Source: Myxococcota bacterium (GTDB taxonomy: Bacteria; Myxococcota_A; UBA9042; PHBI01; JAWLBL01). From it: a DNA stretch of 64,000 bases. The position numbers and the translations under genes are program-made. The notes beneath the pieces are model-generated. The model was not told where the DNA came from. It ran no database searches and was given only the letters and a program-made list of their open reading frames with translations. Below, one piece after another: positions 3,143-27,148 of this stretch. Location of the stretch: positions 1 through 64,000 of the forward strand of contig JAWLBL010000024.1 in NCBI GenBank assembly GCA_041687695.1, read 5' to 3'. Each line of letters begins with the position of its first letter. Position 1 is the stretch's first letter.

Positions 3143-3459
3143 CGCGGCCACGTCGCGCTGGGCGTCGGCGGAGAGGCGTTCGCGAGGGCCGACGCGTCAC
3201 CCATCGATGCGCGACCGCCGTCCACCTGGGCCGAGGTGTCTCCGGATGGCCCGTCCACCCCGCCTTGCGTGCGACGCAGGGTTGTCGCGTGTCGGCCCCG
3301 GCGGCGCCGCTTGCTGTCGAGCATTGGGTCGTGCTAGGCCTAGGATCCCAGGTCATTCGAGCACCCGCGCGCTGCCCCGATCGGAGGCCGTTTCGCGATT
3401 CCATATGAGCGTTGCAGCCGTGACCGTTGCATCGTCAGCGCCAACGAAGGAGGCCAACC

Positions 3460-3981
3460 ATGAAGGTGTTCGTGGGCGGTCCGATACAGTTCATGAGCGG
3501 GGACCCGGTGCTCCTTTCGACAATGAAGGAAGCCGTGGGATCATTGATCCAGGCGCTTCAGGTCGAGGGGATCCAAGTCCATAATGCTCACCTCGTCGAG
3601 CACTTCGGAGCGACCAGCGACGAGTGGCACCCATGCTCCATCTCCGAGCGCGACCTGGGCTGGATGCGTGATTGTGACGCGTTCGTGGCCCTGTTGCCGC
3701 CCGACGGGCATGGGAACCTGGCGCGCACCGATGGTACCCACGTGGAGTTGGGCTGGGCCTCGGCGCTGGGAAAGCCCATCGTGTTGGTCGTCGACTCGAG
3801 CCTCGTCCCGCAGTGCAGCCAACTCGTACAGGGGCTCTCTGCCATCGCTGCGGTGCAGTGGTTCGACTTTGCCGATGCGGTGAGGGACCCGAGCGCGCTG
3901 GTCCGCCTGGTCCGAGGGTTCACTCTGAATGCCGCCGAGCGCATCCCGAGTGCAGCGCCGAGCCGTGTCCAAGCACGTTGA
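3460..3981 (+). CDS. Nucleoside 2-deoxyribosyltransferase family (hm)CMP N-glycosidase, BlsM/MilB-like
   Basis: VFVGGP, D-x-FVA and GTHVELGWASALGKPIV motifs; AAGGAGG RBS before ATG 3460. Confidence 0.8.
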   Translation: MKVFVGGPIQFMSGDPVLLSTMKEAVGSLIQALQVEGIQVHNAHLVEHFGATSDEWHPCSISERDLGWMRDCDAFVALLPPDGHGNLARTDGTHVELGWASALGKPIVLVVDSSLVPQCSQLVQGLSAIAAVQWFDFADAVRDPSALVRLVRGFTLNAAERIPSAAPSRVQAR

Positions 3982-5057
3982 GTTCGCGCGCGCCCACCGT
4001 GGCATCGGTTGCACTCGTCTGGACGCAGCCAGGTAGCCAACTCCGAGAGCCCATGCCCTTCATGGTCAGTCGTCCACAGCCGTTGGAGCCGGAGAGTCTG
4101 GAGACCCGGTGGCGAAACGCCTACGCCGCCGCCGCGTTCTCGCCATTCGACGGCTACGAGGTGGCCTCGTCCGTGCCATCCGGCGCCGTGTCTGTGGCCG
4201 CCGGTGGCCTGCTGGGCTGCTACACGCGCGAGGGGGAGCTGGCCGTGTCCGTGCACACGGGCTCCGGCGTCCTCCGGGAGTCGGAGCGCTTTTGCGTGCG
4301 CACGCACTTCGAGCGCGTCCAGGCGGAGTCGGGCGCGTCCTCGGTGGTGTTGCCCATGGTGCATGAAGATCACCCCTTGGCCCGCGCCCTGTACGACCTG
4401 CAGGGAGCCCTCATCCTGCCTCGGCGGCCCACGGCTCAAATCGACTGGAGCGACGACGGCGCCTCCCTTTGGCGACGGTGTGAGGCGCGGCTGGGGACCC
4501 GGGCCGGACGCCGCCGCAGGCGGTTCGAGTCCGCGGGGTACGTCCTGACGACGCTGCGCGGCCGGGACGCCATGGACGCCATCGTCGAGGTCGAATCGAA
4601 GAGTTGGAAGGCGGCCGCGGGCCAGGGCATGGTCACCCGCGGACAGGTCGATCTGTACTCGGCGCTCCTCGGGAGCGCCGGCGGGAGCGCGCGTGTCGTC
4701 CTGTTCGAGGGGCAGCCCGTAGCCTATCGGCTGGACCACGTCGTAGGACGGACGCTGTGGTGTCTGAAGTGGAGCTTCGACGAGGGCCACCGTGCGACCT
4801 CGCCCGGATTCTACCTGCTGGCAGCCGACCTACCCCGCAGCGTAGAGGGCCTGGCTTTGGACCTCGTAGACCTGGCAGGCAGCCCGGATCACCTCAAGGT
4901 GAGTCTGCAGACCGGGACGCGCGAGCGCACAGCGTTCGCCTGGCCCGCCTCGGAGGCGGCGCGGCGCTGGTGCCGCGAGCGCCGCGCCCATGACGAGCGG
5001 ACCCGCCAGACCTGGCGCGCGGGCCATGGCATCCGACATGGCTACGAGGCTCCATGA
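3978..5057 (+). CDS. GNAT family (CelD/BcsL-like) protein; start uncertain (TTG 3978 or ATG 4053)
   Basis: VESKSWK and KWSFDEG...SPGFYLL resemble Acetyltransf_6; stop overlaps the next ATG. Confidence 0.6.
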   Translation: MSSRAPTVASVALVWTQPGSQLREPMPFMVSRPQPLEPESLETRWRNAYAAAAFSPFDGYEVASSVPSGAVSVAAGGLLGCYTREGELAVSVHTGSGVLRESERFCVRTHFERVQAESGASSVVLPMVHEDHPLARALYDLQGALILPRRPTAQIDWSDDGASLWRRCEARLGTRAGRRRRRFESAGYVLTTLRGRDAMDAIVEVESKSWKAAAGQGMVTRGQVDLYSALLGSAGGSARVVLFEGQPVAYRLDHVVGRTLWCLKWSFDEGHRATSPGFYLLAADLPRSVEGLALDLVDLAGSPDHLKVSLQTGTRERTAFAWPASEAARRWCRERRAHDERTRQTWRAGHGIRHGYEAP

Positions 5058-6040
5058 ACGGTCCAAGGATCGCCATCATTCGCCTGCTGGAGGCCTGCAA
5101 CGCGGGTTGCTTCATGTGCGACTTCGCCTGGTCCCGCACGCCTGTGAAGCTGACGCTCGCAGAGGCGCTCGCCCTGGTACGGCCCCTGAGCAGCGGGAGC
5201 GTCCGAGCCGTACGCTTCACCGGGGGCGAGCCGTTGCTCGTTCCCTGGCTGCCCGAGCTGGTGGACGCCTGCCGACGAGCGGGGCTCCTCGTCAGCACGC
5301 TCAGCAACGGCTGGCATCTCGCCGAGCGTGGGCCCGAGCTTGCCTCGGCGGGGCTCTCGCAGGTCGTCGTCAGCCTGGACGGCAGCCGGGCGCCCTCGCA
5401 CGACCGCTTTCGCCGCACGCCGGGCCTGTTCGACCGGCTGATTGAGGGCATCCGCTGGTTCCGGGCGCACGCACCCGCCGTCCGGCTGCGGGTCAACACG
5501 GTAGCCGGTCCTCACAACGTCGAGCAGCTCCCGGGGATTTGGGCCCTGCTCGAAGCCGAGGGGGTCGAGCAGTGGTCCATCATCCCTCTCAAGCGGGCCG
5601 ATGGAGCCTGGCGGAGCGCGACCGAGGACCGACTCCTCGCGTCCATGGCCGACCTCGAGGCCCTTGCGTCGTCTGGACGCGGCCCCCACTTGATGGGCTT
5701 CAGCGCACGCTGGGCCGGTCGCGATGAGGCCGAGCTGGGCAACCTCACCCGGGGCGACCGCAGCTTCACGCCGCGCGGTGAGTGCCGACTGGTGGACGCC
5801 GTGCGTTACGTCGTCCCGGACGAGGACCGCTCCTATCCATGCAACTGCGTGCCTCACCGCACGCAGGGGCGAGTCCTGGGGGAAGGGCTGGACGCCGATA
5901 CGTTCACGAGCAACGGCCTGCGGACGGCCAGAGACTGGCTCCGGGTCCACGGCCCCGAAGGCTGCACCGGCTGCGAGCCGGTGAACGCTGCGCTGGGCGA
6001 GGGCCTCATCGACCTCGACGAGGATCCGCTGGGTTTTTGA
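5054..6040 (+). CDS. Radical SAM enzyme, BlsE/MilG-like (acts on cytosylglucuronate)
   Basis: IRLLEACNAGCFMCDFA (CxxxCxxC), RFTGGEPL and C-terminal YPCNC...CTGC cysteines. Confidence 0.82.
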   Translation: MNGPRIAIIRLLEACNAGCFMCDFAWSRTPVKLTLAEALALVRPLSSGSVRAVRFTGGEPLLVPWLPELVDACRRAGLLVSTLSNGWHLAERGPELASAGLSQVVVSLDGSRAPSHDRFRRTPGLFDRLIEGIRWFRAHAPAVRLRVNTVAGPHNVEQLPGIWALLEAEGVEQWSIIPLKRADGAWRSATEDRLLASMADLEALASSGRGPHLMGFSARWAGRDEAELGNLTRGDRSFTPRGECRLVDAVRYVVPDEDRSYPCNCVPHRTQGRVLGEGLDADTFTSNGLRTARDWLRVHGPEGCTGCEPVNAALGEGLIDLDEDPLGF

Positions 6041-6052
6041 GGAGGTATCGCC

Positions 6053-7003
6053 GTGATGCACCCCCCCGGCCCCGAGCTCGACGCGGCGACCACCCGCATC
6101 GCCCGGGAGTATGGCAAGCAGACCGGCTTGCTGACCGCCTCGGGCATGGCAGCGATCGAATGCGCGCTCCGTTGGTCGGGGATCGGGCCGCGCGACTGGG
6201 TCGTGGTGCCGTCGGAGTGCTGCCACCGGGTGGTGGCCGCGGTCCTCGCGGTCGGGGCCCGGCCCCTGCTCGCGGACGCCCACGCCGATCTCTGCCTGTC
6301 ACCCGTCTCCCTGGCGCGCGCCCTCGAGGCGCTCCCGCGGCCGCACGTGCCCCGCGCGCTGGTCGCCGTGCACCACCTTGGCCTTCCCTGCGACGTGGCC
6401 GGACTTCGCGCCGTCGTGGGAGCCGAGGTGCTCATCATAGAGGACGCGGCCCAGGCCTTCGGCCTCGAGGCCCGGGGTGCCCCGGTGGGGAGCCACAGCG
6501 ACCTGGTCGTCACCTCCTTCGGCGCCACCAAGCCACTTTCGCTCAACGGCGGGGGCGGCGTGTTCGGATCCGCCGAGGCGCTGGCCCCGTCGCTCCCAGA
6601 GCGGGACTTGCCGCGCCTTCCTTGCGCCGCGCCGTTGCACCCGGCCGCCGTGGCGGGGCTCGACGCCGCCCTCGTCGCCGCGCGCGCTCGGGTCGCCGCC
6701 CGTAGGGCATGGGTGCAGGCGCGCCGGCCGCTCCTCGAGGCGCTCGGGTTGTCATCCTGGCGTCCCGCGCCCGGAGACGTGCCCTCCTGGCACCGACTGC
6801 CCTTGCGTGGTACGGCCGAGGCCATCCATGGGGCCGGCCTCGAGGGCCACGTCCAGAGCCCCCACCAGCTCCCGCTCTGGGAGCTCCCCATGTTCGCAGA
6901 CGCCGCCCTCCGTCCGGCCACCCGGGCGCGTCATCGGCTGCTCCGGCTCGATGACCTCGACGGGCTCGACGTGGCGCTGGGCTTGGCAGAGAGGGTCGCA
7001 TGA
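6053..7003 (+). CDS. DegT/DnrJ/EryC1/StrS aminotransferase family (short, divergent C-terminus)
   Basis: SGMAAI, IEDAAQAFG and SFGATKPL (PLP lysine). Confidence 0.8.
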   Translation: MMHPPGPELDAATTRIAREYGKQTGLLTASGMAAIECALRWSGIGPRDWVVVPSECCHRVVAAVLAVGARPLLADAHADLCLSPVSLARALEALPRPHVPRALVAVHHLGLPCDVAGLRAVVGAEVLIIEDAAQAFGLEARGAPVGSHSDLVVTSFGATKPLSLNGGGGVFGSAEALAPSLPERDLPRLPCAAPLHPAAVAGLDAALVAARARVAARRAWVQARRPLLEALGLSSWRPAPGDVPSWHRLPLRGTAEAIHGAGLEGHVQSPHQLPLWELPMFADAALRPATRARHRLLRLDDLDGLDVALGLAERVA

Positions 7004-8124
7004 GCCGCCCGATCCTCAACCCGGCCGCGCTCGGCGCCCTGACCATCGGTGAGGACGAGCGGAGGGCCGTGCTCGACGTGCTCAGCCGGAGGGAGCTCTT
7101 TCGGCACTTCGATGGCGCGAGCGAGTGCGACGCCCTCGAGCGCGAGCTCGGCACTCTCATGGACGCCAAGGCGCTGGTGCTCGGTTCGGGGACGTCGGCC
7201 CTTCGCGCGGCCCTCGTCGCGCTGGGCGTCGCCCGCGGGGACGTCGTGCTCGTCAGCGCCTGGACCTTCGTGGCGTCCGCCTCCGCCGTGATCTCCCTCG
7301 GCGCGTGTCCCCGCCCCGTGGACTCGGGGCCCGACCTCGGCGTCGATGTGAATGACTACCAGCGCAAGAGCTACGGAGCGGCTGCGGCGGTGCTCACCTA
7401 CCTGCCCGGGCACGCCAGCAACATCCACCTGCTCCCGCCCGTGGTCCCGGTGATCGAGGACGCCTGTCAGGCGCTGGGCGTCGGGGCTGGGTCCAGGATG
7501 GCCGGCGCCTGCGCGCACATCGGCGTCACCAGCTTCCAGCAAGGCAAGCAACTCAGCGCCGGTGAGGGCGGCGCCCTGTTCGCGCGAGAGCTGGCCCACG
7601 TCGAGGCCGCCCGCCGGTTCTCCGACCACGGCGCCGTCCGTGACGGGACGCCCGATTGGGAAGACCCCCGAGCGGACGTCGGCGAGAACCTGCGGATGAC
7701 CGAGCTGCAGGCGGCGCTGCTGCGGCCCCAACTCCGTCGCCTCCCTGGCATGCTGGCGGCCCAGCGCAACCTCAGGGACGCGCTGCGGGAGATCCTCCGA
7801 CGGCGTGGACTGCCAATCCTCGACAGCCGCCGCCCCGATGAGGACGCGGGGAGCCACCTCCTCATCCTCGCCGACAGCGCCGAGCAGGCTCGACGCTGGA
7901 GCCTCGCCGCCCGGGAGTCGGGGGTGCTGCTGCGTCAGGTCTGGCCCACGTGCTGGATGGATCTCGGCAGCCTTCGCCGCCGAGGCCTGCAGACGGACGC
8001 TGACGATTGCCCTCGGGCGCGGGACTGGGCTCCTCGGACGCTGGCGTTGCCGGTGCCGCCCCTGACGGGCGAAGCCGCGGTTGCCCTGCTCGAAGCCGTC
8101 GAGGAGTCCGCGCCATGGGCCTGA
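7000..8124 (+). CDS. DegT/DnrJ/EryC1/StrS aminotransferase (BlsH/MilD-like role inferred)
   Basis: SGTSAL, IEDACQALG, SFQQGKQLSAGEGG and NLRMTELQAA. Confidence 0.88.
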   Translation: MSRPILNPAALGALTIGEDERRAVLDVLSRRELFRHFDGASECDALERELGTLMDAKALVLGSGTSALRAALVALGVARGDVVLVSAWTFVASASAVISLGACPRPVDSGPDLGVDVNDYQRKSYGAAAAVLTYLPGHASNIHLLPPVVPVIEDACQALGVGAGSRMAGACAHIGVTSFQQGKQLSAGEGGALFARELAHVEAARRFSDHGAVRDGTPDWEDPRADVGENLRMTELQAALLRPQLRRLPGMLAAQRNLRDALREILRRRGLPILDSRRPDEDAGSHLLILADSAEQARRWSLAARESGVLLRQVWPTCWMDLGSLRRRGLQTDADDCPRARDWAPRTLALPVPPLTGEAAVALLEAVEESAPWA

Positions 8125-9062
8125 AGGTCGAGGCCGTCGCCCCAGACAGCTTCGCCCACCCCGCAGGGGACCTGGAGGTGTGGCAGGATCCGGCCACGGC
8201 TCCCCTGTTGGGCCCCTGCCGTCTCTGGGTGGCCTGGCGCCGCGGTGCGGTGGTCGGCAGCTGGCTCACCCCGACGCGGGGAGATGGCCGGGAGGCCGCC
8301 CGTGACGTGCGCGTACTACCCTACGCGTCGCCATGGCTCGCCCCTGGATCCGCGGATCGGCGTCGCCGTGTGTGGCGCGCGCTCCTCGAGGCCGTCGTCG
8401 CCGAGGTCGACCTCCTCGAGCTGCCCATGAGCCCCGGGTTCGATGGGCTCGGCGCGCTCAGCGCCGTGGGCTGCCTCGTAGAGACCCGCCACACCCATCT
8501 GCTCGAAGGTCTGCAGGCCCCGCAGGCCTCGTTCAGCCCCACGGCCCGGGCCCACGCGAGACGCGCCGCGGCGACCGTGCGCGTGACGCCACAGGCCGTG
8601 GACGCCTTCGACTTCGCGCGCGCCATCCACGGCGCCTCCGAGGCCAGCCTTGCTCGGCGCCGACGGTTCGCTACGTGCCTGGCGGAGCAGGGACGAGCCT
8701 GGGCGTTGGCGGCTCACTGCGAGGGGCGACCGCTCGGCGGGATCGTCGGCATCCGCTCGGCCGAGACCATCGTCGCGATGCACTCGTGGCACGATCGAGC
8801 CGGCCCGAGCGGCATACCGAGCCAGCTCGTCCTCGCGCTCGCTCGCCTCGCGCACGCGCACGGCGCCCGACGTGTCGACCTGGAGGGATCCGTCATCGCA
8901 GGCGTGGATCGCTTCATGGACACGGTCTCTTCGAGGGTCCTCCCGGTCCCCCACGTGCACTGGGCTCGCTCGCGGCGGCGACTGCTACTCAGCCTCGAAG
9001 AATCCCTGGCCATCCCGGGTCGCGTGGACCTCTGCGACCGCAGCGACGAGGGGCAACCATGA
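8115..9062 (+). CDS. GNAT/FemAB-like protein
   Basis: C-terminal VDLEGSVIAGVDRFM resembles the DFEGS motif of FemAB-related GNATs; coupled to both neighbours. Confidence 0.6.
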   Translation: MGLKVEAVAPDSFAHPAGDLEVWQDPATAPLLGPCRLWVAWRRGAVVGSWLTPTRGDGREAARDVRVLPYASPWLAPGSADRRRRVWRALLEAVVAEVDLLELPMSPGFDGLGALSAVGCLVETRHTHLLEGLQAPQASFSPTARAHARRAAATVRVTPQAVDAFDFARAIHGASEASLARRRRFATCLAEQGRAWALAAHCEGRPLGGIVGIRSAETIVAMHSWHDRAGPSGIPSQLVLALARLAHAHGARRVDLEGSVIAGVDRFMDTVSSRVLPVPHVHWARSRRRLLLSLEESLAIPGRVDLCDRSDEGQP

Positions 9063-9772
9063 GCGGCGAGTTGCTGGCGCTGCTCTATGACTGGCACAAC
9101 CGTCACCGGCTGAGCCGTCAGGCCGCCGACGTGCCCTTCTATCGGGACCTTCTACCCTCTGGGCGTGTCTGGGTCCTCGGCGCCGGGACCGGTCGCCTGG
9201 CCGTCCCGCTGGCCCGCTCAGGACGGCAGGTCGTGGCCGTCGACCGGGACGTCGCCCGACTGGACCGCATCCCAGACACCCCCGGGCTCTCGCGTTGGCA
9301 CGGCGACATCGCCCATCTGCCAGAGGCCGCCGACGCGGCGGCGGTGGCGCCCTACAGCACCCTCCAGCTCGTCTCCACACACGACCTGGCGGACTGCTTG
9401 CTGGGCGCTAGCCGGGTGCTCGGCCCCGACGGAGCGCTATGGTGCGATCTCAGCGACAGCTTCCAGGCGCGTCAGGGACACGCGCGTCGGCGCGTGATCG
9501 TCGCCGAGTGCCCCGAGCTGGGCGGGCCAGTGGCCGAGGACCAGGAGACCGTCGTGCACGCCGATCGCATCGAGCTGCGCGCTTGGTGGTCATTGCGCAG
9601 GCAGCCACTGGCCCACACCGTCGAGCACTGGCACTTCCATCCCACGCCGACGATCGTAGCAGCCGCCACCTCCGTGGGTCTGAGGCTGCTCGAGGAGCTG
9701 CGTGGATACGGGGCGCCCGAGACGCTGCATCGGCGCATCCTGGTCTTCGGGCGAGCCGGGAGGCGCGCGTGA
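9059..9772 (+). CDS. Class I SAM-dependent methyltransferase
   Basis: LYDW...DVPFY, VLGAGTGR, VAVD; ATGA overlap. Confidence 0.82.
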   Translation: MSGELLALLYDWHNRHRLSRQAADVPFYRDLLPSGRVWVLGAGTGRLAVPLARSGRQVVAVDRDVARLDRIPDTPGLSRWHGDIAHLPEAADAAAVAPYSTLQLVSTHDLADCLLGASRVLGPDGALWCDLSDSFQARQGHARRRVIVAECPELGGPVAEDQETVVHADRIELRAWWSLRRQPLAHTVEHWHFHPTPTIVAAATSVGLRLLEELRGYGAPETLHRRILVFGRAGRRA

Positions 9773-10551
9773 GCGTCGCGACGTTCCGAGAGCTGGCCCG
9801 GGCCGCGCCCGGCCGTCTCGCTGACCTCGAACCCAAGGCTCGCGGTCTGGTCGAGCTCGCGCGTTGGGGGCTGCCCGTTCCGGACGGGCTGCTCGTATGG
9901 CCGGACGGAGACGTCGTGGAGGTCGCCCGCCGCGCGGTGGACGTGTTCCGGAGTCAGCTCCCGGCCCCTTTGGGCACCCTACACGAGGGGCGCCCCGTCG
10001 CTGCGACCGTGCGCTTCGCCTGCAAGCGGCACCGTCCCGACCTGCCTCCGAGCTTCCTCGCGCTCGGCGCGACGGCCCCTCACGACCAGGACCGCGACCT
10101 GCGGCTCGCGCGCTTGGAGGCCGACCTGCCCGGCGCCCTGAAGCTGCGTGAGCTGCCTCCGGAGGCCGGCGTGCGGAGCGCAGTGACCCTCGCGCTCGCA
10201 TGGTGTCGGCGGCGCGGGGAGGCGTCTCCCGTCGTGGTGCAGCGAATGGTGTTTGGACGCGGCGCCGGCTCGGCCGCCGGGATGGCCTACACCCGCCCCC
10301 CCGAGGTCGGCTTGCCCGCCCCCTATGGGCGCTTCCGCCTCGACGCCGAGGGCTGGCGCTATGCTGAGTCCGGGCCCGAGGACAAGCGGGACCTCGGCGA
10401 GCTGGCCGAAGCCCTGCCGGAGGCCGCCGCCGCGTTGCTGGAGCTCCTGGACGCCCTCCATACGGCGGCGGGACAAACCCGCTACGTCGAGTTCGTGGTC
10501 GACCGCGGTCGGGTCTTTCTCGTTCAGAACACCCGAGGACGGCTCCCATGA
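9769..10551 (+). CDS. PPDK/PEP-synthase N-terminal (ATP-grasp) domain protein lacking the His-swivel domain
   Basis: KARGL...GLPVPDG, VVVQRMVFG, GMAYTR and VEFVVD...FLVQ; GTGA overlap. Confidence 0.68.
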   Translation: MSVATFRELARAAPGRLADLEPKARGLVELARWGLPVPDGLLVWPDGDVVEVARRAVDVFRSQLPAPLGTLHEGRPVAATVRFACKRHRPDLPPSFLALGATAPHDQDRDLRLARLEADLPGALKLRELPPEAGVRSAVTLALAWCRRRGEASPVVVQRMVFGRGAGSAAGMAYTRPPEVGLPAPYGRFRLDAEGWRYAESGPEDKRDLGELAEALPEAAAALLELLDALHTAAGQTRYVEFVVDRGRVFLVQNTRGRLP

Positions 10552-11621
10552 GTCTGGTCGAAGCGCTGGAGGCTTCGGCCGTGGCCCCACACCCGCTGCG
10601 CCTGCGGGACTGGCGAGGGGAGGTGCGCCTCGGCGGAGCCCGTCCACTGGTCGCGGCGGTGCGCGAGGCGTGCTGGCCCCATGTGCAGGTCGACCCGCAG
10701 GTGGCTCTGGGGACGGGGCCACTGTGGCCATCCGTGCGCCTCCACCTGGGCCTCGATCCGCTGCCGTGCCCCGAGCTTGGGGAGCCGGTGGTCTTCGCCT
10801 GCTCCACGGTGCGGGTCTTGCGTGGACACCGCGGACATGTGGGGGCGTGGACCGTGGTCCACAACCCGACGAGCGGGGCGCTCCTCGCGCGACGCGGCGA
10901 CCAGCTGATGGTGCGCCCTACGCGCCCGACGCCGCCCGAGTCCCTGACCGCCGACGCCACGAGCCTGCTGCGCCTGCTGACCCGACGACGGGACGAAGCC
11001 GCGGGAGCGCGGCTCTTGCACGGCGCCTGCGTGTGCCCGACGGGGGGCGACGCGGTCCTGCTGTGCGGGAGCAAGGGTGGAGGCAAGTCGACCCTCATGG
11101 CCGCGCTCCTGAAGGCCGGCGCGAGCTACGTCGCGGGCGATCGAACCCTGATCCGGCTGGCGGTCGACGGCGACGGCGACGGCGACGGGGCGCGCCTCGA
11201 GGTGACCGGCTTCGTCGATCCGGTCCGACTCGGGCCGCTCGCCCTCGAGCACCTCGGCCTGCATGCCGATGTGGGCTTGGCGCTGCCCGGCAAGCGAGCC
11301 CTGAGCGCTCGCGCCCTGTGCGCCGCCACGGGTGCCGGTGGTCGCCCGAAGGCCCGCCTCCAGGCCATCATCCACTCGGCCTGGCGCCCCGATGCGCCAG
11401 CTCGCGCCCAGCGTTGTCGCGTCCGGGACCTTCCTGAGCTGGAGGACTTCACGCATCGCGATCCAACCTACTTCGACTGGCTCCAGGCGGACTCTCCTCG
11501 ACCAGCTCCTGGCCCTGTCCATGACGCGCTGGCCTCGCTGCCCGCCCTGGCCCTCAGCGGTGCCTACTCCCTGGACTCAGCCACCCGTGAGATCCTCGCA
11601 TGGTGGGGGACCCTGACATGA
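10548..11621 (+). CDS. HPr kinase-like P-loop kinase
   Basis: LHGACV, LLCGSKGGGKSTL and YVAGDRTLI. Confidence 0.72.
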   Translation: MSLVEALEASAVAPHPLRLRDWRGEVRLGGARPLVAAVREACWPHVQVDPQVALGTGPLWPSVRLHLGLDPLPCPELGEPVVFACSTVRVLRGHRGHVGAWTVVHNPTSGALLARRGDQLMVRPTRPTPPESLTADATSLLRLLTRRRDEAAGARLLHGACVCPTGGDAVLLCGSKGGGKSTLMAALLKAGASYVAGDRTLIRLAVDGDGDGDGARLEVTGFVDPVRLGPLALEHLGLHADVGLALPGKRALSARALCAATGAGGRPKARLQAIIHSAWRPDAPARAQRCRVRDLPELEDFTHRDPTYFDWLQADSPRPAPGPVHDALASLPALALSGAYSLDSATREILAWWGTLT

Positions 11622-11628
11622 GGACGCC

Positions 11629-12747
11629 ATGAGCACGCTAATCGTTCTTCGGGGCCCGCCGGCCTGCGGCAAGACCACCGTGGCCCATCTCCTCCGGGAG
11701 CGCCTCGCCCCGGCCATCCGCCTGAGCGTCGACGCCTTGCGTTACTTGGGGCTGCCGCGCGTTCTCACGCCCGAGGACCTTCGAGCCGCCGAGGCTGGCG
11801 CCGTGGACCTGGCGCTCCGAGAGCTCGGCCGAGGTCGTACGGCCATCGTGGACAGCGTGTTCGACGACCCCCTGACCGTCATGGAGGTGCGGATCCGGGT
11901 GGAGGCCGCCGGCCACCGCGTCTTCGTCGTGACCCTGCGCGCCGACGTCGAGGAGGCGGTGGCGCGCAACGCGGCGCGCGGCCCCCTCGACGCGATGGAC
12001 GCGGAGCGCCTGCGGGAGGTCCACACCGACTTCCCAGACGTCCCCGGCCTGGTCCTTGGCACCAGCGAGCGCCTCCCAGAGGAGGTCGCCGATGCCATCG
12101 TAGGCGCGCTTCCCCGCGGACCGTCGCCGGCGCCCTCGGATGCGGCCGTGCTCTTCGTCCGCCACGCGCAAGCCGCCTCGCCCCGCGATCGCTACCCCGA
12201 CCACGCCCGCCTCGGCCTGAGCGACGTCGGCCGGGCTCAGGCCCGCGCGGCGCGTGCGGCCGTCGCGGCTTTCGGGCCCACCCGCGTCGTCTGCTCCCCG
12301 CTCCTCCGCGCCACCCAGACGGCGGATGTCCTCGTCGGCGCTGGAGCCTACGAGGTCGACCCGCGCGTGAGCGAGCGCGTCTTCCCGGCCCTCGCCGATC
12401 TGAGCTGGGCTTCGATAGCCTCCCGCCACGGCGATGTCTTCGTCGACCGACTCCGCCGGTCTCCGGACGAGATCTCCATGGCCGACTGCCAGCCGGTCGA
12501 GCTCTGGCAGCGCGGCTGTGTGGCGGCCATCGAGGAGGCCATGGACACCCCAGAGCCGGCGCGGCTGCTGGTGGTCTCTCACGGCGGCCCTCACGGTTGG
12601 TGGGTGAGTCACCTCCTGGGCATGCCGCTCAGCGCGCAGCGGCGGATCTACTTGGCCAAAGCCCACGGCACCCTGGTACGCTGGACGGACCCACCGACCC
12701 TCGCGGCCATGAACCTCTCGCTCCACGAACCCTGGGGGCTACCATGA
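11629..12747 (+). CDS. P-loop nucleotide/small-molecule kinase fused to a histidine phosphatase
   Basis: N-terminal GPPACGKTT; C-terminal FVRHA, SPLLRATQTA and VVSHGG. Confidence 0.82.
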   Translation: MSTLIVLRGPPACGKTTVAHLLRERLAPAIRLSVDALRYLGLPRVLTPEDLRAAEAGAVDLALRELGRGRTAIVDSVFDDPLTVMEVRIRVEAAGHRVFVVTLRADVEEAVARNAARGPLDAMDAERLREVHTDFPDVPGLVLGTSERLPEEVADAIVGALPRGPSPAPSDAAVLFVRHAQAASPRDRYPDHARLGLSDVGRAQARAARAAVAAFGPTRVVCSPLLRATQTADVLVGAGAYEVDPRVSERVFPALADLSWASIASRHGDVFVDRLRRSPDEISMADCQPVELWQRGCVAAIEEAMDTPEPARLLVVSHGGPHGWWVSHLLGMPLSAQRRIYLAKAHGTLVRWTDPPTLAAMNLSLHEPWGLP

Positions 12748-13538
12748 ACACCGAGCGCCGTGACGGCACCGCCGTGAGCGCGGACGCGCACCTCGAGGCG
12801 ATCCTCTACGACTGGGAGTGTCGGCAATTCCTGAGACGACAGCTCGGGGACGTGCGCTTCTACAAGCGCCACGCCCAGGGACGGGTCTTGGAGCTCGCCT
12901 GCGGCACGGGGCGTGTCACCGAGGCCCTCCTGGATGCAGGCCACCCCGTGACCGCCCTCGACGTTCACTCGGGCATGCTCGCTCAGGCTCGCAAACGTCT
13001 CGGTGAGCGGGCGTCGCTGGTCGAGGCGGACATGCGCCAATTCGAACTGGCCTCCCAGTTCGACACCGTGGTCATCGCGTACAACAGCTTCCAGCTCCTC
13101 CACTCGCTGTCCGATCAGGAGGCCTGCCTCCGGCGCATCCGGGAGCACCTCGTCCCGGGCGGGCGGCTCCTCTTCGAGGTCACCCCCTTCCTCCTCCGCG
13201 ATCCGCCATCGGACTGGTCGCATCGTGCCACCGCCCATTTGCACGCGGATCCGACGATCGCGGGCGACGGGACCGTCGTGTCCGCCTGGGAACGATGCCG
13301 CACCCGCCCCTCTGCCCAACTCAACCACTTCGACGTCCGCTACGAGCTCTTCGGGACCGACGGGACGCGCCTGGAGCTGCATCACACCCTCACTCTGCGC
13401 ACGATCTTTCGTTTCGAACTCGAGTTGTTGCTGACGGCCTGTGGCTTCGCGGTCGAGCGGATCGACGGCGATTACGACGGCACACCCCTCGAAGCATGCG
13501 AAGACGAAGGGATGGTCGTCTCCGCGCGCACCACCTGA
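12744..13538 (+). CDS. Class I SAM-dependent methyltransferase
   Basis: LYDW...DVRFY, VLELACGTGR, ADMRQF, HLVPGGRL. Confidence 0.88.
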   Translation: MNTERRDGTAVSADAHLEAILYDWECRQFLRRQLGDVRFYKRHAQGRVLELACGTGRVTEALLDAGHPVTALDVHSGMLAQARKRLGERASLVEADMRQFELASQFDTVVIAYNSFQLLHSLSDQEACLRRIREHLVPGGRLLFEVTPFLLRDPPSDWSHRATAHLHADPTIAGDGTVVSAWERCRTRPSAQLNHFDVRYELFGTDGTRLELHHTLTLRTIFRFELELLLTACGFAVERIDGDYDGTPLEACEDEGMVVSARTT

Positions 13539-13548
13539 GGGCCTGCGC

Positions 13549-15198
13549 GTGTGTGGCTTCGCGGGGGTCCTGGGAGAGCCGGCCGAGGACGCTGCCTCGG
13601 TGTGGCGCACCCTGGAGCGCCGCGGTGTGCCCGACGGGAGTTGGACCTGCGGTCGCTTTCGAGGCTGGCAGTCCCGGCTCGCCATCGTGGCGCCCGAGGA
13701 GGGGCGCCTCCCGGTTTCGTGGACCCTGTCGCCCGACCACCACATCGTCCTTTTTGGAGCCGGCCAGATCCACAACCATCTCGCCCTTCGGCGCCTGCTG
13801 TCAGCCGCCGACCGCGCGCGCGCCCCCAGCAGCGATCTGGCCCTGGTGGGGCTCCTGTGGGCCCGGTTCGGCTTGCAGGGGCTCCGGCTGCTCCGGGGGC
13901 CCTATTCGGCGGCCATCTGGGAGCAGCGGGAGGGTCGACGGCGCCTGTGGCTGTGCCGCGACCGTCTGGGACGTCGTCCTCTGTTCGTCGCGCGATCGCC
14001 TGGTCGCCTCGCCTTCGCGACGAGCATCGCGACCCTGAAGTGTCTCCACCCCGTCGGAGCTCCCTGTCCAGACCGTGTCCTGCAGTTTCTGGGCGCTGGC
14101 ACCACCTGCGCCGATGGTGCCGTTCACCGCGACATCGAGAGCGTGCCGCCCGGGGGCGTCTGGGGCTTCGACCTCGACGGAGGCTGCGTCATGCAGGCCC
14201 GGCTCCCCCCTCCCGCGCTCACGGGGCTGCCCCTCGGAGCGGTGCTCGCGGCCGCGATGGAGCGCATTCGCCTCGCCGACACGCCCCCAGTCCTGGCGCT
14301 GTCGGGTGGCGTGGACTCCTCCTGGATGGCCCTCCGTCTGGCGCGACACGGGCCCGTGAACGCCATCACCTTGGTGCGCCCGGGCGTCTCGGATCCAGCA
14401 TCGTCGCGGTCGGCGCAGGTGGCACGGACACTGGGGCTCCGGAGCGCCGTCGTGTCCTGGGAGCCTCCTCCGGCCGCTCGGGCGCTCGCCTGCCTCTCCG
14501 AGCGCGTGGATCGTCCCGCCTCCACCCCGGCCGTTCTACACAATGACGCGCTGCACGCAGCCGTCCCTGGCCGCCTGCTCCTCGGCGGTCACGGCGCGGA
14601 CGAGGTCCTGGGCGGCTACGGCCGCTACGTCGCCTTCGCCACCGGCCAGCCTCCGGCGTGGTCGCGAGCCGAGCTGGCCTTGCGTGTGTGCCCCGAGTTC
14701 GTGCGCGGCCGGAGAGCGCTCGCAGACTGGATCGCCGCCTCCTCGTCTTCCGAGCGCCTCGCGCGCTGGTGGGACCTGACCCTCTTGCAGGCTTGGGACA
14801 ACTTCCACCTGCCCGACGAAAATGGCCTCCACCACGGAGTGGAGGTCCGGTCTCCGTTCCTGGACCTGGACGTGGTGCGAAGCGGACTGTCGGAGCCGAC
14901 CTCACACAAGGAGGTCCTGCGCGCCGAGCTCCGCAGCGTGCTCCCCTCCGAGCTCGTCGACGCTCCCAAGTCGGGGTTCGACACCCCGTTCGACTATGCG
15001 GCGTGGCTCATCAGCGAGTGGCCGGATCTTCGACGCGCCTGGCTCGGTTCAGAAGCCGAGACACTCGTCCCGCGCCATCTGCGCGCCCTGCTGCAGGACG
15101 CCGAGGCGCCGCGCTTGGCGCCTCTCCTTGCATGGCGCGCCGTGGCGCTGAGCGCGCACCTTCAGAGCCATCGACGCCCCCAGATCCTCGGCCAGTGA
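13549..15198 (+). CDS. Asparagine synthase (AsnB)-like glutamine amidotransferase
   Basis: GTG start gives MCGFAG (Ntn Cys2); [28 protein letters not shown] and EVRSPFLD. Confidence 0.85.
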   Translation: MCGFAGVLGEPAEDAASVWRTLERRGVPDGSWTCGRFRGWQSRLAIVAPEEGRLPVSWTLSPDHHIVLFGAGQIHNHLALRRLLSAADRARAPSSDLALVGLLWARFGLQGLRLLRGPYSAAIWEQREGRRRLWLCRDRLGRRPLFVARSPGRLAFATSIATLKCLHPVGAPCPDRVLQFLGAGTTCADGAVHRDIESVPPGGVWGFDLDGGCVMQARLPPPALTGLPLGAVLAAAMERIRLADTPPVLALSGGVDSSWMALRLARHGPVNAITLVRPGVSDPASSRSAQVARTLGLRSAVVSWEPPPAARALACLSERVDRPASTPAVLHNDALHAAVPGRLLLGGHGADEVLGGYGRYVAFATGQPPAWSRAELALRVCPEFVRGRRALADWIAASSSSERLARWWDLTLLQAWDNFHLPDENGLHHGVEVRSPFLDLDVVRSGLSEPTSHKEVLRAELRSVLPSELVDAPKSGFDTPFDYAAWLISEWPDLRRAWLGSEAETLVPRHLRALLQDAEAPRLAPLLAWRAVALSAHLQSHRRPQILGQ

Positions 15199-16238
15199 TC
15201 GCCGAGATCATTGGGTCCCAGATCCGCACCGGGCAGCGGCTCGGCCATGGCCTCTACGTGGGCCGCCAGGGGGGCTGATAGGGGCACCCCGAGCGAGGGC
15301 AGGCGACGCAAGACGTAAGCGGCACCGGCGGACAAGCCGAGCTCGATGACGATCTCCAGGGCGCGGGCGTGTTCGGCAGGGGAGGCGGTCGCGACCAGCG
15401 CGGCTACGTCGGCGCATTGATGCGCGCCTCGCCCGAAGCGCTGCACACCCTCCCAGTAGAGCTTGTAGACGGCCAGCGCGATCGACCAGCTTCGGTCGGC
15501 CAGGCAGAGGCCGTCGAGGCGGACCGCGTCGCGCAGCAGGCGCCGCGTGGACACGGCGGGGTTGATTCCGTGGTGCGCGTCCACCACGAGGAAGAGGACG
15601 GCGCGGCCCGATCGGACCGTCCAGGGGAGGCTGCAAACGGCCGCGACTCGGCTCACGAGATCGACGGACACGCGCTGAGGCGAGAGCTCCACGGGGCGGA
15701 CCAGGTAGCCGAGCTCGTAGTGCTCGGCCTCGACCAGGCGCCGACGCTCGAGATCGGGGCGCACGAACTCGCGCATCCGGGGGTTCCAGTCCGCGGCGCT
15801 GTAGCCGGCTTCCAAGAGCAGGCGCTCGGCCCGTTCGAGCTCTTCGGGCCAAACGGCGAGATCGAGATCCCGACCCACGCGGCGCAGGCCCGTCCAGCGC
15901 CGCACGGCGCTCCCCTTCATCCAGGCGTGTCGGATCCCTTCTTCGTCGAGGCGCGCTCCGAGGCGGCCGAGCTCGTCGTCCTGCAAGCGGGCCGTCAGCT
16001 CGGCAAGGTCCGCCAGATCACGGGCCAGGCGGAGCTGTGGCCGCTCCCCATCACATCGGTCCGAGGAGGGGCCGAGCAGATGGGGCGCGACCTGCCAGAG
16101 CTCGATGGCCAGACGGTCGAGGCCGCTGGGGACGCCATCGCCGCGGCTCTCGGCGCGAGGTCCGAGCCAGGGCGCGAGGTCGACTAGCGCCGCGAGGCTG
16201 CGACGTCCGGCGTCGTCATTCACGGCCTGATGCGTCAC
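15162..16238 (-). CDS. Nucleotidyltransferase family protein (NTP_transf_5-like)
   Basis: WMKGSA...RVGRDLDLAV motif; 3' end overlaps the asnB-like gene convergently. Confidence 0.72.
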   Translation of the reverse strand: MTHQAVNDDAGRRSLAALVDLAPWLGPRAESRGDGVPSGLDRLAIELWQVAPHLLGPSSDRCDGERPQLRLARDLADLAELTARLQDDELGRLGARLDEEGIRHAWMKGSAVRRWTGLRRVGRDLDLAVWPEELERAERLLLEAGYSAADWNPRMREFVRPDLERRRLVEAEHYELGYLVRPVELSPQRVSVDLVSRVAAVCSLPWTVRSGRAVLFLVVDAHHGINPAVSTRRLLRDAVRLDGLCLADRSWSIALAVYKLYWEGVQRFGRGAHQCADVAALVATASPAEHARALEIVIELGLSAGAAYVLRRLPSLGVPLSAPLAAHVEAMAEPLPGADLGPNDLGDHWPRIWGRRWL

Positions 16239-16773
16239 TCGAGGGCGACCGGACCCGACCAGACACGGGGCCCTCGGTCGTCACAGGGCGGAGCGCGTCG
16301 ACCCGAGCGGACACGGGCCCGTCGGTCGCGACCACACCCGACACCGGAATGGGCGAGGCCGACAGCGGGCCGAGGTGTCGGACCAGGGCCGCCGCGACGG
16401 CCTCGACGTCCGCGTCCGTGAGGGTCCGGTTGCCGCGGAGGACGGGAGTGCCGGGCGAGGCGGCGGCCACCGAAGGAATGGGAGAGGCCGAGACGGCCGG
16501 GATCGGGGAAGCCGAGACCATGGGGGTAGGCGAGGCCGACAAGCCGCCGCGGCCAAAGCGCCGAGCGGGCGCGGTGCGCCCCGTGCTCAGCCGGCTGGCG
16601 ACGAGATCGGCCAGGATCTCGAGCTGGCTCCGGCGGGACATGCCGAGCCTGCGTGCGACGGCGCTGGCGACATGATCGGCCAGGAAGTCCATGTCTGGGG
16701 ACTTGGGAGTGGGCGAGGCGCTGCTCTCAGCGAGGGCGAGACGGAGGAGCTCCTGGAGGTCACGACGAGGCAT
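16216..16773 (-). CDS. Small repeat protein with five SASP(I/T)P motifs; candidate precursor or acceptor peptide
   Basis: ATG 16773 with AAGGA RBS; overlaps both neighbouring genes; the amino-acid repeats use different synonymous codons. Confidence 0.7.
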   Translation of the reverse strand: MPRRDLQELLRLALAESSASPTPKSPDMDFLADHVASAVARRLGMSRRSQLEILADLVASRLSTGRTAPARRFGRGGLSASPTPMVSASPIPAVSASPIPSVAAASPGTPVLRGNRTLTDADVEAVAAALVRHLGPLSASPIPVSGVVATDGPVSARVDALRPVTTEGPVSGRVRSPSSDASGRE

Positions 16774-17893
16774 GGCGAGTCCTTGTGTCGGTGAGGGTGG
16801 CGTTTCGGACGATGAGTTCGGCAACCGAGTCCTGGCCCGGCTCCGTCCAGCGATGCCGGACGAAGGCGCCGAGGCCGGGAAGGGGGTCCTCCTGCGTCTT
16901 CAGCAGGCCCCGCAGCCTGTCTCCCAGGACGTCGGAGTAGGGCCCCAGGCAGGCCCGCAGCGCGGCCTCGACGGCCGCGACGCCGATCGCTTCGGGGAGC
17001 CCGGCAGGGATCCGAAGCGAGGGATGGATGGCGCTCAAGGGAACCAGGCAGCCGGGCGGGAGCACGTCGCGGTAGCGCTCGAGGATGAGGGCCTGGCTGT
17101 AGTTCTGCGGCGGTAGGAAGCGCGGAGGGACGCCCATGGACAGGGCCTCCACGGTCGTGGTGATCCCAGGGGCCGTGATGAGCCGCTCGCAGCGGGCGAG
17201 GCGTCTGACGAACTCGTCGTGCGGCAGATGCCCGATCTGCACGTTCGGGTAGTCGTCGCGCAAGGCCGCGCTGAGCGCCGCGTTCGTGCAGACGAGGACG
17301 GAGCCGTAGCGGGTCGTCGCTTCGGGCAACAACGCCTCGAGCACGAGACGCGCATAGCGCAGGTAGAGATCACCATGCACGAAGGGGTTGGCCAACCCCG
17401 ACAGGTTGATGAGCAGCTCCCCGGACCGCGGGCCTCGGGCGACACCCTGGGCGGCATCGATCGGAGGCACCGCCCGCCGATTGCTGCCGAACTCGACCTC
17501 GCGGTCGAGGAGGAAGTCCTGGACGAATACAGCCTGGGCGTTGTCGATGCCGGGGGGCGGCGCGTGCCACATCCAGTCGAGGCTGTCCACGACGTACAAC
17601 GGCGGATCGACGACCGGGTTCCAGTCGGCGGCGACCGACATGTTGAGGACGCTGACCACTGCGGTCGCATCGGCCGCGGTACGGCGTAGTCGCGCCCGGC
17701 CCAGGTCGGTGTCCACCGCCAGCTCGTGAATCTCGTCGAAGACGTGGGCGCGTCGTGCAAAATCGAGGGCGATGCCGTCACCGTAGAACGCCAGGACGGC
17801 TTCGTGACATCGGCGCTGCAGGGCCCGTGCGATGGTCACCGCCTTCGACACGGGACCGAAGCCGAACGATGTGGACAGAAACACGAACCTCAT
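16760..17893 (-). CDS. Cytosylglucuronate (CGA) synthase-related glycosyltransferase, BlsD/MilC-like
   Basis: GT-B-like FGFGPVSK, VDSLDWMW and APGITTTVEA...LPPQNYSQ; same cluster as the BlsM- and BlsE-like genes. Confidence 0.72.
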   Translation of the reverse strand: MRFVFLSTSFGFGPVSKAVTIARALQRRCHEAVLAFYGDGIALDFARRAHVFDEIHELAVDTDLGRARLRRTAADATAVVSVLNMSVAADWNPVVDPPLYVVDSLDWMWHAPPPGIDNAQAVFVQDFLLDREVEFGSNRRAVPPIDAAQGVARGPRSGELLINLSGLANPFVHGDLYLRYARLVLEALLPEATTRYGSVLVCTNAALSAALRDDYPNVQIGHLPHDEFVRRLARCERLITAPGITTTVEALSMGVPPRFLPPQNYSQALILERYRDVLPPGCLVPLSAIHPSLRIPAGLPEAIGVAAVEAALRACLGPYSDVLGDRLRGLLKTQEDPLPGLGAFVRHRWTEPGQDSVAELIVRNATLTDTRTRHASS

Positions 17894-24446: not shown

Positions 24447-24567
24447 AAACGACGAGAGTCCCCGGGGTGACCGCCGAGGCTCTCTGTAGACCGCCCACCG
24501 TCGATGACTCGCGGTGGGGTAAGACGGCTCAAATGGGGCCTGGCTTGCCCGACGCATGAGTGCCCCG
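24447..24567. mobile_element. att-like junction: element right-end copy + GGCTC core + element left-end copy
   Basis: 24467-24530 matches 28897-28960 and 24531-24567 matches 25239-25275. Confidence 0.75.
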
Positions 24568-24693
24568 CGGGACTACAGCTGGCGCCGTGAACCCTTGGAA
24601 CCGCGAACTTCGCCGGCCGTCCGAGGGCCTGCGTCGACCCGTGGGGCGTGTCCGTCGTCATCGAAGCGGGCGGCTGCGACGAAACCGCCGAGG

Positions 24694-24995
24694 TCACCCG
24701 CGCAGCGCCGCGACCCACTCGCGGATCGTCGCGCAGGCTTCGTCGAGCGGGATGCGTGGGCCCCAGAACACCGGCGCGATCTTCGCCTAGGCCCGTGCGA
24801 CGCTAGCGCGCTTGTCCGGGTCGTCGAGCACCAGCGACGGGTCGTCGGCGCTCGGCAGGGCGGCGATGCCCTTGTCTGCGAACATGTCCTCGGCCAGGGC
24901 GAGGGTGGAGGTCTCGGTCGGGGGGAGCCGGTCGAGCGCCTGGATGATCCGGGCGGCGTCCTCGTAGTGACACACGAAGGCGTCCGCCTCGACCA
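24694..24995 (-). pseudogene. 5'-truncated gene remnant with an internal stop, probably an AbiEii-type nucleotidyltransferase C-terminus
   Basis: FVCHYEDAARII...ASVARA*AKIAPVFWGPRIPLDEACATIREW; cut by the repeat at 24997. Confidence 0.5.
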
Positions 24996-24996
24996 C

Positions 24997-25238
24997 GGCT
25001 CGGGTCGCTGGCCCGAGCCCGACATTCGGACCAGAAATGCAGGAAGGCCCACCCCCTGGTGGGGGCGGCCTTCCTGGTCTCTGGCTCCGGCGGTTGGACT
25101 CGAACCGACACCTGCCTCGCGTGCGCTCGGTCGGACGCCCGCTTCGCGGGCTCGGGTCGCTGGCCCGAGCCCGACATCCGGGCCAGAAATGCAAGAAGGC
25201 CACCCCCTGGCGGGGGCGGCCTTCTTGGTTTCTGGCTC
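24997..25238. repeat. Two ~90-bp direct repeats (24997-25088, 25149-25238), each with a terminator-like hairpin and ending in TGGCTC
   Basis: Direct comparison; GAAGGCC...GGCCTTC stem followed by a T-rich tract on the minus strand. Confidence 0.85.
25082..25106 (-). repeat. Duplicated 3' end of tRNA-Asn (att scar)
   Basis: TGGCTCCGGCGGTTGGACTCGAACC vs 28955-28979, 24/25 identical. Confidence 0.85.
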
Positions 25239-27087: not shown

Positions 27088-27148
27088 CGTGCGAGCCGGC
27101 CGCCTTCGCCGGCGTCCCTTCATCATCCGCTGACGCGCGAGGTCGACG

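Follow-up and report, generated by a model that had tools for sequence, protein, structure and literature searches.

A divergent ASAVARRL-repeat protein coupled to a nucleotidyltransferase in a nucleoside-type gene cluster of a Myxococcota bacterium: a possible multi-site carrier for nucleoside analogues

Microcin C is a ribosomal peptide that carries a nucleotide as a pro-toxin; a ThiF-family enzyme acts at one site, the C-terminal Asn, and a dedicated exporter is present. In the fosfazinomycin pathway, FzmF and FzmK (one of which is an ATP-grasp enzyme) build a triphosphate-like donor, a phosphonate, which the nucleotidyltransferase (NTase) FzmU ligates to the C-terminal hydrazide of a ribosomal peptide (PMC13622209). 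According to PMC6993621, the pseudomycoidin (PsmK/PsmN) and paeninodin-type clusters combine an HprK-like kinase with an NTase of an uncharacterised family acting on a peptide Ser, an asparagine-synthetase (AsnS)-fold enzyme lies nearby, and PsmN leads to hexosylation of the terminal phospho-Ser. The MenAT1/AbiEii (DUF1814) systems provide the closest solved fold and also have, next to the NTase gene, that of a small helical partner (PMC10435456). Here, we compare with these systems a locus in a 64,000-nt stretch of DNA from a Myxococcota bacterium (GenBank assembly GCA_041687695.1, contig JAWLBL010000024.1, positions 1 to 64,000; hereafter the window), in which the gene for a 185-aa repeat protein (P0001; 16216..16773, minus strand) lies between genes for a cytosylglucuronic acid (CGA)-synthase-like glycosyltransferase and an NTase. 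P0001 is a divergent member of an unnamed protein family, defined in this analysis by ASAVARRL-type repeats and linked to one NTase subfamily, and the repeat protein may be a multi-site covalent carrier onto which the NTase loads the monophosphate of a nucleoside analogue.

The fosfazinomycin system has an AsnS-like enzyme and no dedicated protease, and the window cluster likewise combines an NTase and an AsnS-like enzyme with a protein resembling the N-terminal part of pyruvate phosphate dikinase (PPDK) and further kinases; the likeness of this NTase to FzmU lies in the proposed reaction logic. FzmZ is one 22-residue peptide that has a YxxP leader and a partner containing a recognition element (RRE) for peptides made by the ribosome and modified after translation (RiPPs), whereas the repeat family consists of multi-repeat proteins of 80–430 aa with no RRE detected and with a predicted nucleoside cargo. 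An RRE-fused AsnS, a YxxP leader, a C-terminal Arg and a phosphoenolpyruvate (PEP) mutase were not detected in the window cluster. Unlike lasso peptide clusters, the window cluster showed no sign of a lasso precursor, of B proteins or of an ABC transporter, and its AsnS-like gene also occurs in a sister cluster that has no NTase; the match to the lasso cyclase model NF033535 reached 46 bits (cut-off, 525 bits), and no PqqD/RRE or B2 match was found among 15 window proteins. The window NTase differs from MenT1 in its length (~360 aa), its extra N- and C-terminal helices and its assignment to PF14907, which was its sole family match, with no match to DUF1814/AbiEii or in PADLOC, so that the likeness to that group is one of fold alone. 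The partner is also a multi-repeat protein, unlike those of MenAT1/AbiEii, and the two genes are found within nucleoside biosynthetic clusters that contain nucleoside monophosphate kinases. Microcin C resembles the carrier proposed here as a ribosomal peptide bearing a nucleotide as a pro-toxin, but its ThiF-family enzyme, its single C-terminal Asn site and its dedicated exporter have no counterpart. The system would work most like FzmZ/FzmFKU yet falls outside that system, the lasso clusters and MenAT. No description of the repeat family was found in the searched full text ('ASAVARRL', 0 papers), in which subscription journals are largely uncovered. The main text of a preprint on 7-deazapurine mining (10.64898/2026.04.15.718813) contains none of the terms nucleotidyl, thymidylate kinase, Bradyrhizobium, RiPP or precursor peptide; these zero counts apply to the main text, and its supplements may list such clusters.

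An earlier note on this DNA described a 185-aa open reading frame (ORF) with a ribosome-binding site that overlaps both neighbours, and this description was confirmed on the minus strand. The translation from 16773 to 16216 is free of stops, whereas the plus-strand reading meets a stop at codon 5 and hence is not the coding frame. An AAGGA ribosome-binding site (16780..16784, minus) lies 6 nt upstream of the ATG. The ORF is the middle gene of a three-gene minus-strand unit and overlaps the preceding CGA-synthase-like ORF (17893–16760) by 14 nt and the following NTase ORF (16238–15162) by 23 nt, or by 8 nt if translation of the NTase begins at the GTG start of the database protein P0004. The GC contents of its three codon positions are 0.73, 0.63 and 0.83, the last of which resembles that of the neighbouring genes (0.82–0.88 in the cluster), and a database homologue (P0003; 60% identity) retains both the tandem run and the helices described below. 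Pairwise comparison of the codons of the five SASP[IT]P copies in P0001 gave 33 synonymous differences, 21 identities and 6 amino-acid differences, and two or more copies arose in 0 of 100,000 shuffles, in agreement with the earlier proposal of protein-level selection. Off-frames of this GC-rich genome often contain a lone SASP[IT]P word (76 six-frame matches listed), and thus the significance of the motif lies in its clustering alone. Given the ribosome-binding site, the overlaps, the codon-position GC, the synonymous divergence and the homologue, the ORF is a genuine gene whose repeats are under selection at the protein level.

P0001 itself has almost no searchable relatives, and the NTase was therefore used as the search handle. 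P0001 and the repeat proteins of five other loci had no Pfam, NCBIfam or PADLOC match where tested; P0001 had no usable match in the ESM Atlas, a blank result that speaks neither for novelty nor for absence; and 0 of 594 candidates from a metagenome search with P0001 and P0003 were confirmed. An exhaustive protein search yielded 113 representatives of the window NTase group, and a narrowed 18-row alignment yielded 47 metagenomic loci. NTases were merged at ≥85% identity into 39 groups, of which the 23 with ≥700 bp of upstream sequence were counted. A same-strand repeat ORF with at least two motif copies was directly observed in all 23 of these non-redundant groups, usually just upstream of the NTase gene. 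This result stands under leave-one-group-out analysis; in 259 kb, just one further frame scored, namely the antisense strand of a repeat gene. Four (L018, L024, L025 and L045) of the 16 uncounted groups with <700 bp upstream still show a repeat ORF. No scoring repeat ORF was found in three CGA-synthase loci lacking the NTase (L004, L006 and L007), beside four distant NTases (L057 and L063–65) or beside the three other NTP_transf_5 matches of the source genome. In these sequences, the repeat family is thus obligately linked to this NTase subfamily, which bears out the earlier idea of a multi-repeat partner of the adjacent NTase. The check that the note had proposed, a search for SASP[IT]P-repeat ORFs beside homologous NTases, succeeded for the repeat ORF and failed for the motif, since SP[ITV]P occurs in only 1 of 48 family frames.

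Two NTases carry N-terminal extensions with amphipathic-looking helices (residues 1–200 of P0012, which also contains a GLPAVE word, and residues 1–90 of P0031, with EPIPAVS); these are possible natural fusions with a repeat-like protein. One of the distant NTases (23.5%; L057:7485–8882, Bradyrhizobium japonicum plasmid NZ_CP066352) lies in a phosphonate cluster with genes for PEP mutase, aconitase, an isopropylmalate-dehydrogenase-like protein, a phosphoribosyltransferase (PRTase) and phosphoribosyl pyrophosphate synthetase, downstream of a 74-aa ORF with a loose LASAVV word; this locus may be a phosphonate-loading cousin like FzmU. In L004 (903–7302; G021:C43), a CGA-synthase-like gene resides in a different small cluster without an NTase or repeat ORF, next to ORFs that by eye are glycosyltransferase-like, LOG-like and deacetylase-like.

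The [VI]ASAVARRL repeats were first met in three small ORFs of a Bradyrhizobium deazapurine locus, in the same words as a helix of P0001, and membership of the family was defined by at least two [LIV]ASAVARRL-type helices. Scored with a position-specific scoring matrix (PSSM) built from other loci and excluding P0001 and P0003, the P0001 helices reached 23.0 and 8.4 bits, with a third copy at 6.6. Among 60,891 six-frame segments of the source genome, 10 had at least two PSSM matches, and the P0001 ORF was the first of the two short ones; P0001 also lies on the same strand as, and adjacent to, an NTase with the HYELG/KLYWEG/NDxGDxWP motifs. Family members carry 2–11 helices on disordered linkers that are often Arg/Ser-rich, and many are strongly basic. 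A single C-terminal [ED]LP[LVT]xxE motif is present in 21 of 27 family loci and absent from 6, and is thus typical, not obligatory; it is plausible as a single recognition element. The motif position is Ser in 135 of 158 instances, a count that is biased because training required Ser although the Ser column was unscored; in eight held-out loci, Ser was found in 21 of 32 instances against a background of 12%. On a helical wheel, this Ser lies opposite the Leu/Val/Leu hydrophobic face, between small Ala residues. The flanking codons vary synonymously, which indicates that the family repeats are not a DNA repeat. The 24 database relatives are unnamed or annotated as 'hypothetical', two of them from Pyrinomonadaceae metagenome-assembled genomes.

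Four deazapurine loci (L005, L041, L048 and L049) contain three different repeat ORFs each, two basic and without the C-terminal motif and one short, ending in [ED]LPxxxIEI beside the NTase, which suggests divided core and recognition roles. A conserved transposase-like helix-turn-helix gene, possibly a domesticated regulator, lies immediately upstream of the repeat genes in the deazapurine-type loci (L005:11278–12090, L041:6501–7325, L048:3435–4202, L049:6682–7473 and L050:4077–4865).

In P0001, the motif counts of the earlier note were reproduced: SASPTP twice (residues 18 and 79), SASPIP three times (residues 87, 95 and 138), AASPGTP, the tandem 8-aa run and two GPVS repeats. Its description of Ser motifs alternating with helices was half right, as both elements are present in the order SASPTP–helix–helix–tandem run–helix–SASPIP, without strict alternation. 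An AlphaFold2 model from a 3-row alignment (mean predicted local distance difference test score (pLDDT) 45.5, low confidence) places helices at residues 3–18, 28–43, 47–63 and 120–133 and all SASP and GPVS repeats in coil. The predicted helix of residues 28–43 (16645..16692, minus) bears the canonical DHVASAVARRL, which gave the 23.0-bit match, and its Ser37 (AGC codon) is the prime candidate acceptor. The DNA of the helix of residues 47–63 (16585..16635, minus; LADLVASRL, with Ser60, AGC) is a 23-nt, 91%-identical duplicate of that of the preceding helix, and Ser37 and Ser60 are therefore equivalent. The third motif helix (residues 120–133; 16375..16416, minus), the fourth helix overall, reads DVEAVAAALVRHL. 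The first SASPTP copy (residues 18–23; 16705..16722, minus) is absent from P0003. The run LSASPTPM-VSASPIPA-VSASPIPS-VAAASPGT (residues 78–109; 16447..16542, minus) is in predicted coil and lineage-specific, and is followed by the SASPIP copy 3' of the last helix (residues 138–143; 16345..16362, minus) and by the two [DE]GPVS repeats (residues 148–158 and 164–174; 16252..16332, minus). SASPIP or GPVS as a variant of the family C-terminal ELPxxE was considered and rejected, as it failed a shuffle test, and derivation of ASPIP from ASAVA was judged unlikely in view of their different Ser codon classes (TCN and AGY, respectively). With the helix conserved and SP[ITV]P confined to one family frame, the helix emerges as the shared element and SASP[IT]P as a lineage elaboration; the earlier assignment of SASP as the core and the helix as recognition sequence therefore probably inverts the emphasis.

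The NTase (15162..16238, minus) belongs to NTP_transf_5 (PF14907), in a subfamily sharing the motifs HYELG, DxHH, KLYWEG and NDxGDxWP and having a predicted MenT1/ANT(2'')-like fold. K108, D124, D126 and D220 are invariant in 54 aligned rows, and the KG[SA]...DxD...D pattern is present. The model (pLDDT 89.3) marks it as a Pol-beta-type transferase with an intact active site. After MenT1, its fold matches are TglT/MenT3, ANT(2'') (Z 11.1), MenT4 and LnuA (Z 9.7); as the substrates of such proteins include both tRNA and small molecules, the fold does not by itself point to one acceptor. No PDB sequence match was found, nor any match in viral contigs or phage records. Apart from the source genome, none of the 400 genomes sampled from the window's phylum matched the NTase profile, which gave only 3 distant matches among 401 genomes from a different family; a single-NTase scan of genome contigs gave one 35-aa match (L001), unconfirmed in that genome.

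The neighbours of the NTase differ from locus to locus. A chosen subset of 155 called neighbour ORFs was scanned (89 proteins in total, including a few added by hand). A thymidylate-kinase (Tmk)-like gene was found in 12 of the 14 large non-redundant family loci, and a gene with multiple transmembrane segments near the NTase in 2 of the 14, exporters being mostly missing. The accompanying cargo genes are of several kinds: deazapurine genes (L005, L041, L048, L049 and L050); adenosine deaminase, radical S-adenosylmethionine (SAM) enzyme and S-adenosylhomocysteine hydrolase (L012 and L014; partial in L015, L029 and L032); B12-radical SAM enzyme, glycosyltransferase and APH kinase (L019; B12 enzymes also in L023, L039 and L047); ribonucleotide reductase with two radical SAM enzymes (L028); and PhyH, radical SAM enzyme, aminotransferase and CGA-synthase-like protein (L027 and L042). 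In L028 (3828–8821), the ribonucleotide reductase, radical SAM/SPASM and B12-radical SAM genes lie beside the NTase module, a gene set reminiscent of albucidin/oxetanocin-type chemistry.

Two paired comparisons bear on the role of the module. A tblastn search with the NTase matched two Bradyrhizobium plasmids, in which the NTase lies in a 7-deazapurine cluster with genes for QueD, FolE, QueE, IMP dehydrogenase/GMP reductase, PRTase, UbiD, UbiX and a Tmk-like kinase; this 30.8-kb locus contains the Tmk, the NTase and three repeat ORFs, and no annotated Nudix hydrolase or major facilitator superfamily (MFS) exporter. The tubercidin cluster (TubA–I; PMC6112128) shares the deazapurine core and closes with genes for a Nudix hydrolase and an MFS exporter, in place of which Bradyrhizobium has the Tmk, NTase and repeat genes. 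Similarly, L007 (20.8 kb; Streptomyces microflavus plasmid NZ_CP054927, 254745–275533), an orphan sister of the window cluster, contains orthologues of eight window cargo genes (two GNATs, two DegT, methyltransferase, kinase–phosphatase fusion, AsnS and CGA-synthase-like) plus an MFS gene, and no NTase, repeat ORF, PPDK-like or HprK-like gene. Both pairs, one case each, point to phosphorylation and transfer taking the place of dephosphorylation and export. The blasticidin-type plasmid locus L006 likewise has ATP-grasp and MFS genes where the family loci instead have a kinase, the NTase and a repeat protein.

In the window, the minus-strand unit converges on a plus-strand run (3427–15198), and the cargo genes of the cluster resemble the blasticidin S/mildiomycin pathway (CGA synthase and BlsE). 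The CGA-synthase-like protein (16760..17893, minus; TIGR04467, 77 bits, cut-off 300) and the BlsE-like radical SAM enzyme (5054..6040, plus; TIGR04466, 189 bits, cut-off 400) score below the curated equivalog cut-offs and are thus related proteins, not equivalogs. Besides the latter, the plus-strand run encodes a nucleoside 2-deoxyribosyltransferase-fold protein (3427..3981, plus; PF05014), presumably BlsM/MilB-like, and cargo-tailoring enzymes (3813..9772, plus), namely two GNATs, two DegT aminotransferases and one methyltransferase-like ORF. It continues with the stand-alone protein like the N-terminal nucleotide-binding part of PPDK (9769..10551, plus), a candidate activating kinase; an HprK-related kinase with weak matches (10548..11621, plus; TIGR04355, E=9e-5; HprK 1ko7, E=0.022); a P-loop kinase (AAA_33/CPT) fused to a histidine phosphatase (11629..12747, plus); and a SAM methyltransferase and AsnS-like amidotransferase (12597..15198, plus), convergent with the NTase gene. 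The earlier note recognised no protease, and no peptidase was found among the scanned cluster proteins; cleavage could fall to housekeeping enzymes, as for FzmZ. Its proposal of the HprK-like kinase at 10548 as partner was not borne out, as this kinase has no tblastn relative (E≤1e-4) in the related loci, where the usual partner is Tmk-like; a weak HprK-family match was seen in L019 alone.

To the reading of the repeat protein as a multi-site covalent carrier we assign a probability of roughly 45%. The window cluster would make a modified cytosine nucleoside, which the cluster kinases would convert, via the mono- and diphosphate, into a triphosphate-like donor. From this donor, the NTase would move the monophosphate of the analogue onto Ser hydroxyls of the repeats, with Ser37 and Ser60 as the first candidates and the SASP[IT]P serines next. 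The loaded protein may be an inactive intracellular store or pro-toxin, later released by housekeeping proteases or phosphodiesterases; this purpose is favoured because exporters are missing from most family loci and a dedicated protease was not found. The reading is supported by the linkage in all counted groups, the rank of P0001 in the PSSM scan of its genome and the negative control loci; by the conserved, exposed Ser, the recurrence of the Tmk-like kinase with varying cargo and the two paired comparisons; and by the precedent of FzmF/FzmK/FzmU (PMC13622209). P0001 also resembles a RiPP precursor in being a predicted ribosomal product with repeated cores beside genes for modifying enzymes. 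The Ser-acceptor scaffold of the earlier note matches this reading of the sequence data, the acceptor residue itself being a candidate. SASP[IT]P could be a lineage-specific acceptor, given its expansion and conservation in P0001 and P0003 and the ASP-richness of the same-cargo L042; P0001, P0003 and L042 have lost Ser in some helices, which the CGA-type L027 has not. More generally, and with the same tentativeness, a portable module of kinase, NTase and multi-core repeat protein may load whichever analogue its cluster makes, constituting a new class of ribosomal product.

Several observations weigh against the carrier reading. Its donor chemistry is in doubt for the window cluster, because a BlsE-type decarboxylated pyranosyl nucleoside would have no 5'-OH. 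No Tmk-like gene was found in window positions 1–25000, which hold the three other kinase-like genes, and L019 and L027 likewise have no Tmk. Within P0001, Ser is present in just two motif helices, the third having Ala where P0003 has Ser, and no significant match to the C-terminal [ED]LPxxE motif was found (best score −2.2, matched by 1770 of 2000 shuffles). Across the family, the residues replacing the motif Ser are mainly Asp, Asn and Arg and never Thr, and the dominance of Asp and Asn could reflect a structural role of the position; AGY codons in 123 of 135 cases are a sign of common descent, not of function. In a quick tree of 39 rows (fragments <250 aa and duplicates excluded), the window NTase is long-branched and apart from the two other CGA-type loci, and no origin is therefore claimed for it. 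The best fold match of the NTase model is MenT1 (Z 15.1, rmsd 2.5, 177 aligned residues), described in PMC10435456 as a tRNA-modifying toxin held by a short helical antitoxin, MenA1. Finally, support for the carrier role comes from sequence and gene context, from which we infer the identity of the donor, the acceptor residue, the binding of the repeats to the NTase and the purpose of loading.

The principal rival, which we consider unlikely, follows from this modelled fold: a MenT-like NTase toxin would put an analogue nucleotide on the 3' ends of tRNA or other nucleic acids, and the unmodified repeat helices would act as an antitoxin or inhibitor neutralising several NTases, the outcome being growth arrest and abortive anti-phage defence. 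The position of the repeat gene, usually directly upstream of the NTase gene, is antitoxin-like, exporters are rare (2/14), the helical extensions of P0012 and P0031 would fit such binding, and MenA1 neutralises MenT1 with one long helix across two protomers (PMC10435456). However, MenT1 covers only about half of the NTase model, neither the NTase nor the repeat proteins have a PADLOC match, and an antitoxin would not obviously need 2–11 copies with an exposed, conserved Ser or the three different repeat proteins of some loci.

It is improbable, in our estimate, that the SASP[IT]P motifs are the substrate proper, with the HprK-like kinase (10548) phosphorylating their Ser and the NTase then adding a cap, in the manner of PsmK and PsmN on pseudomycoidin, and with the helices as recognition sequences. 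Such a pathway, which could coexist with the carrier role, would account for the tandem expansion and conservation of SASPIP in P0001 and P0003 under protein-level selection, for the presence of the HprK-like gene in the window cluster and its absence from the NTase-less sister L007, and for the top rank in ASP content, among 38 proteins, of P0001, P0003 and the CGA-type L042, some of whose helices carry Asp or Ala; PsmN is likewise needed to add a hexose to phosphorylated Ser (PMC6993621). It is difficult to reconcile with the scarcity of SP[ITV]P in family frames, the lack of a close HprK relative in related loci, the CGA-type L027, whose 11 helices all have Ser and which contains few ASP motifs, the loss of the first SASPTP in P0003, and the failure to detect a lasso peptidase, RRE or transporter in the cluster.

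Still less credence is given to an unmodified scaffold whose amphipathic helices on disordered linkers, resembling encapsulation peptides, would cluster or condense the pathway enzymes while the NTase tailors or detoxifies the free nucleoside like ANT(2'') or LnuA. The helix–linker architecture with its low pLDDT, the ANT(2'') and LnuA fold matches and the strongly basic nature of many members fit this idea, but the repeat ORF follows the NTase and not the pathway, the same pathways exist without it, no microcompartment or encapsulin family was found in the 89 neighbour proteins (E≤1e-8), and the exposed motif position is conserved as Ser. That the gene is a shadow ORF of low complexity in GC-rich DNA, as lone off-frame SASP[IT]P words and the lack of Pfam, NCBIfam and Atlas matches might imply, is nearly excluded on sequence evidence by the ribosome-binding site, the coupling to both neighbours, the third-position GC of 0.83, the synonymous divergence, the P0003 homologue and the family match.

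Farther along the window, imperfect direct repeats of 39–68 nt (24526–25286), an ORF pair resembling an AbiEi/AbiEii toxin–antitoxin (25472–27087) and a serine-recombinase-like ORF (27149–28486), the latter two judged by look and not by family scan, are followed by a tRNA-Asn gene (28955–29030). These features (24526–29030) suggest a mobile-element edge near the cluster.

Under any of these explanations, an undescribed NTase subfamily and a repeat family are tightly linked and joined to at least five unrelated nucleoside-modifying gene sets, and the motif is a search handle for orphan nucleoside clusters. Under the antitoxin explanation, a dedicated analogue pathway would arm the toxin. On the loading model, the system would represent a new RiPP class with multi-site Ser nucleotidylation by analogue nucleotides, a new route of antimetabolite self-protection or storage and possibly a means of attaching unnatural nucleotides to proteins as labels. 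Because the Bradyrhizobium strains (plasmids NZ_CP145949 and NZ_CP096256) are cultured, the question is directly testable. If loading is confirmed, the family would comprise poly-nucleotidylated pro-toxins or intracellular stores of 7-deazapurine, adenosine-derived, B12-radical-SAM-made and cytosylglucuronate-derived analogues, and ASAVARRL would serve as a tag in mining genomes for nucleoside antibiotics and antivirals yet unknown.

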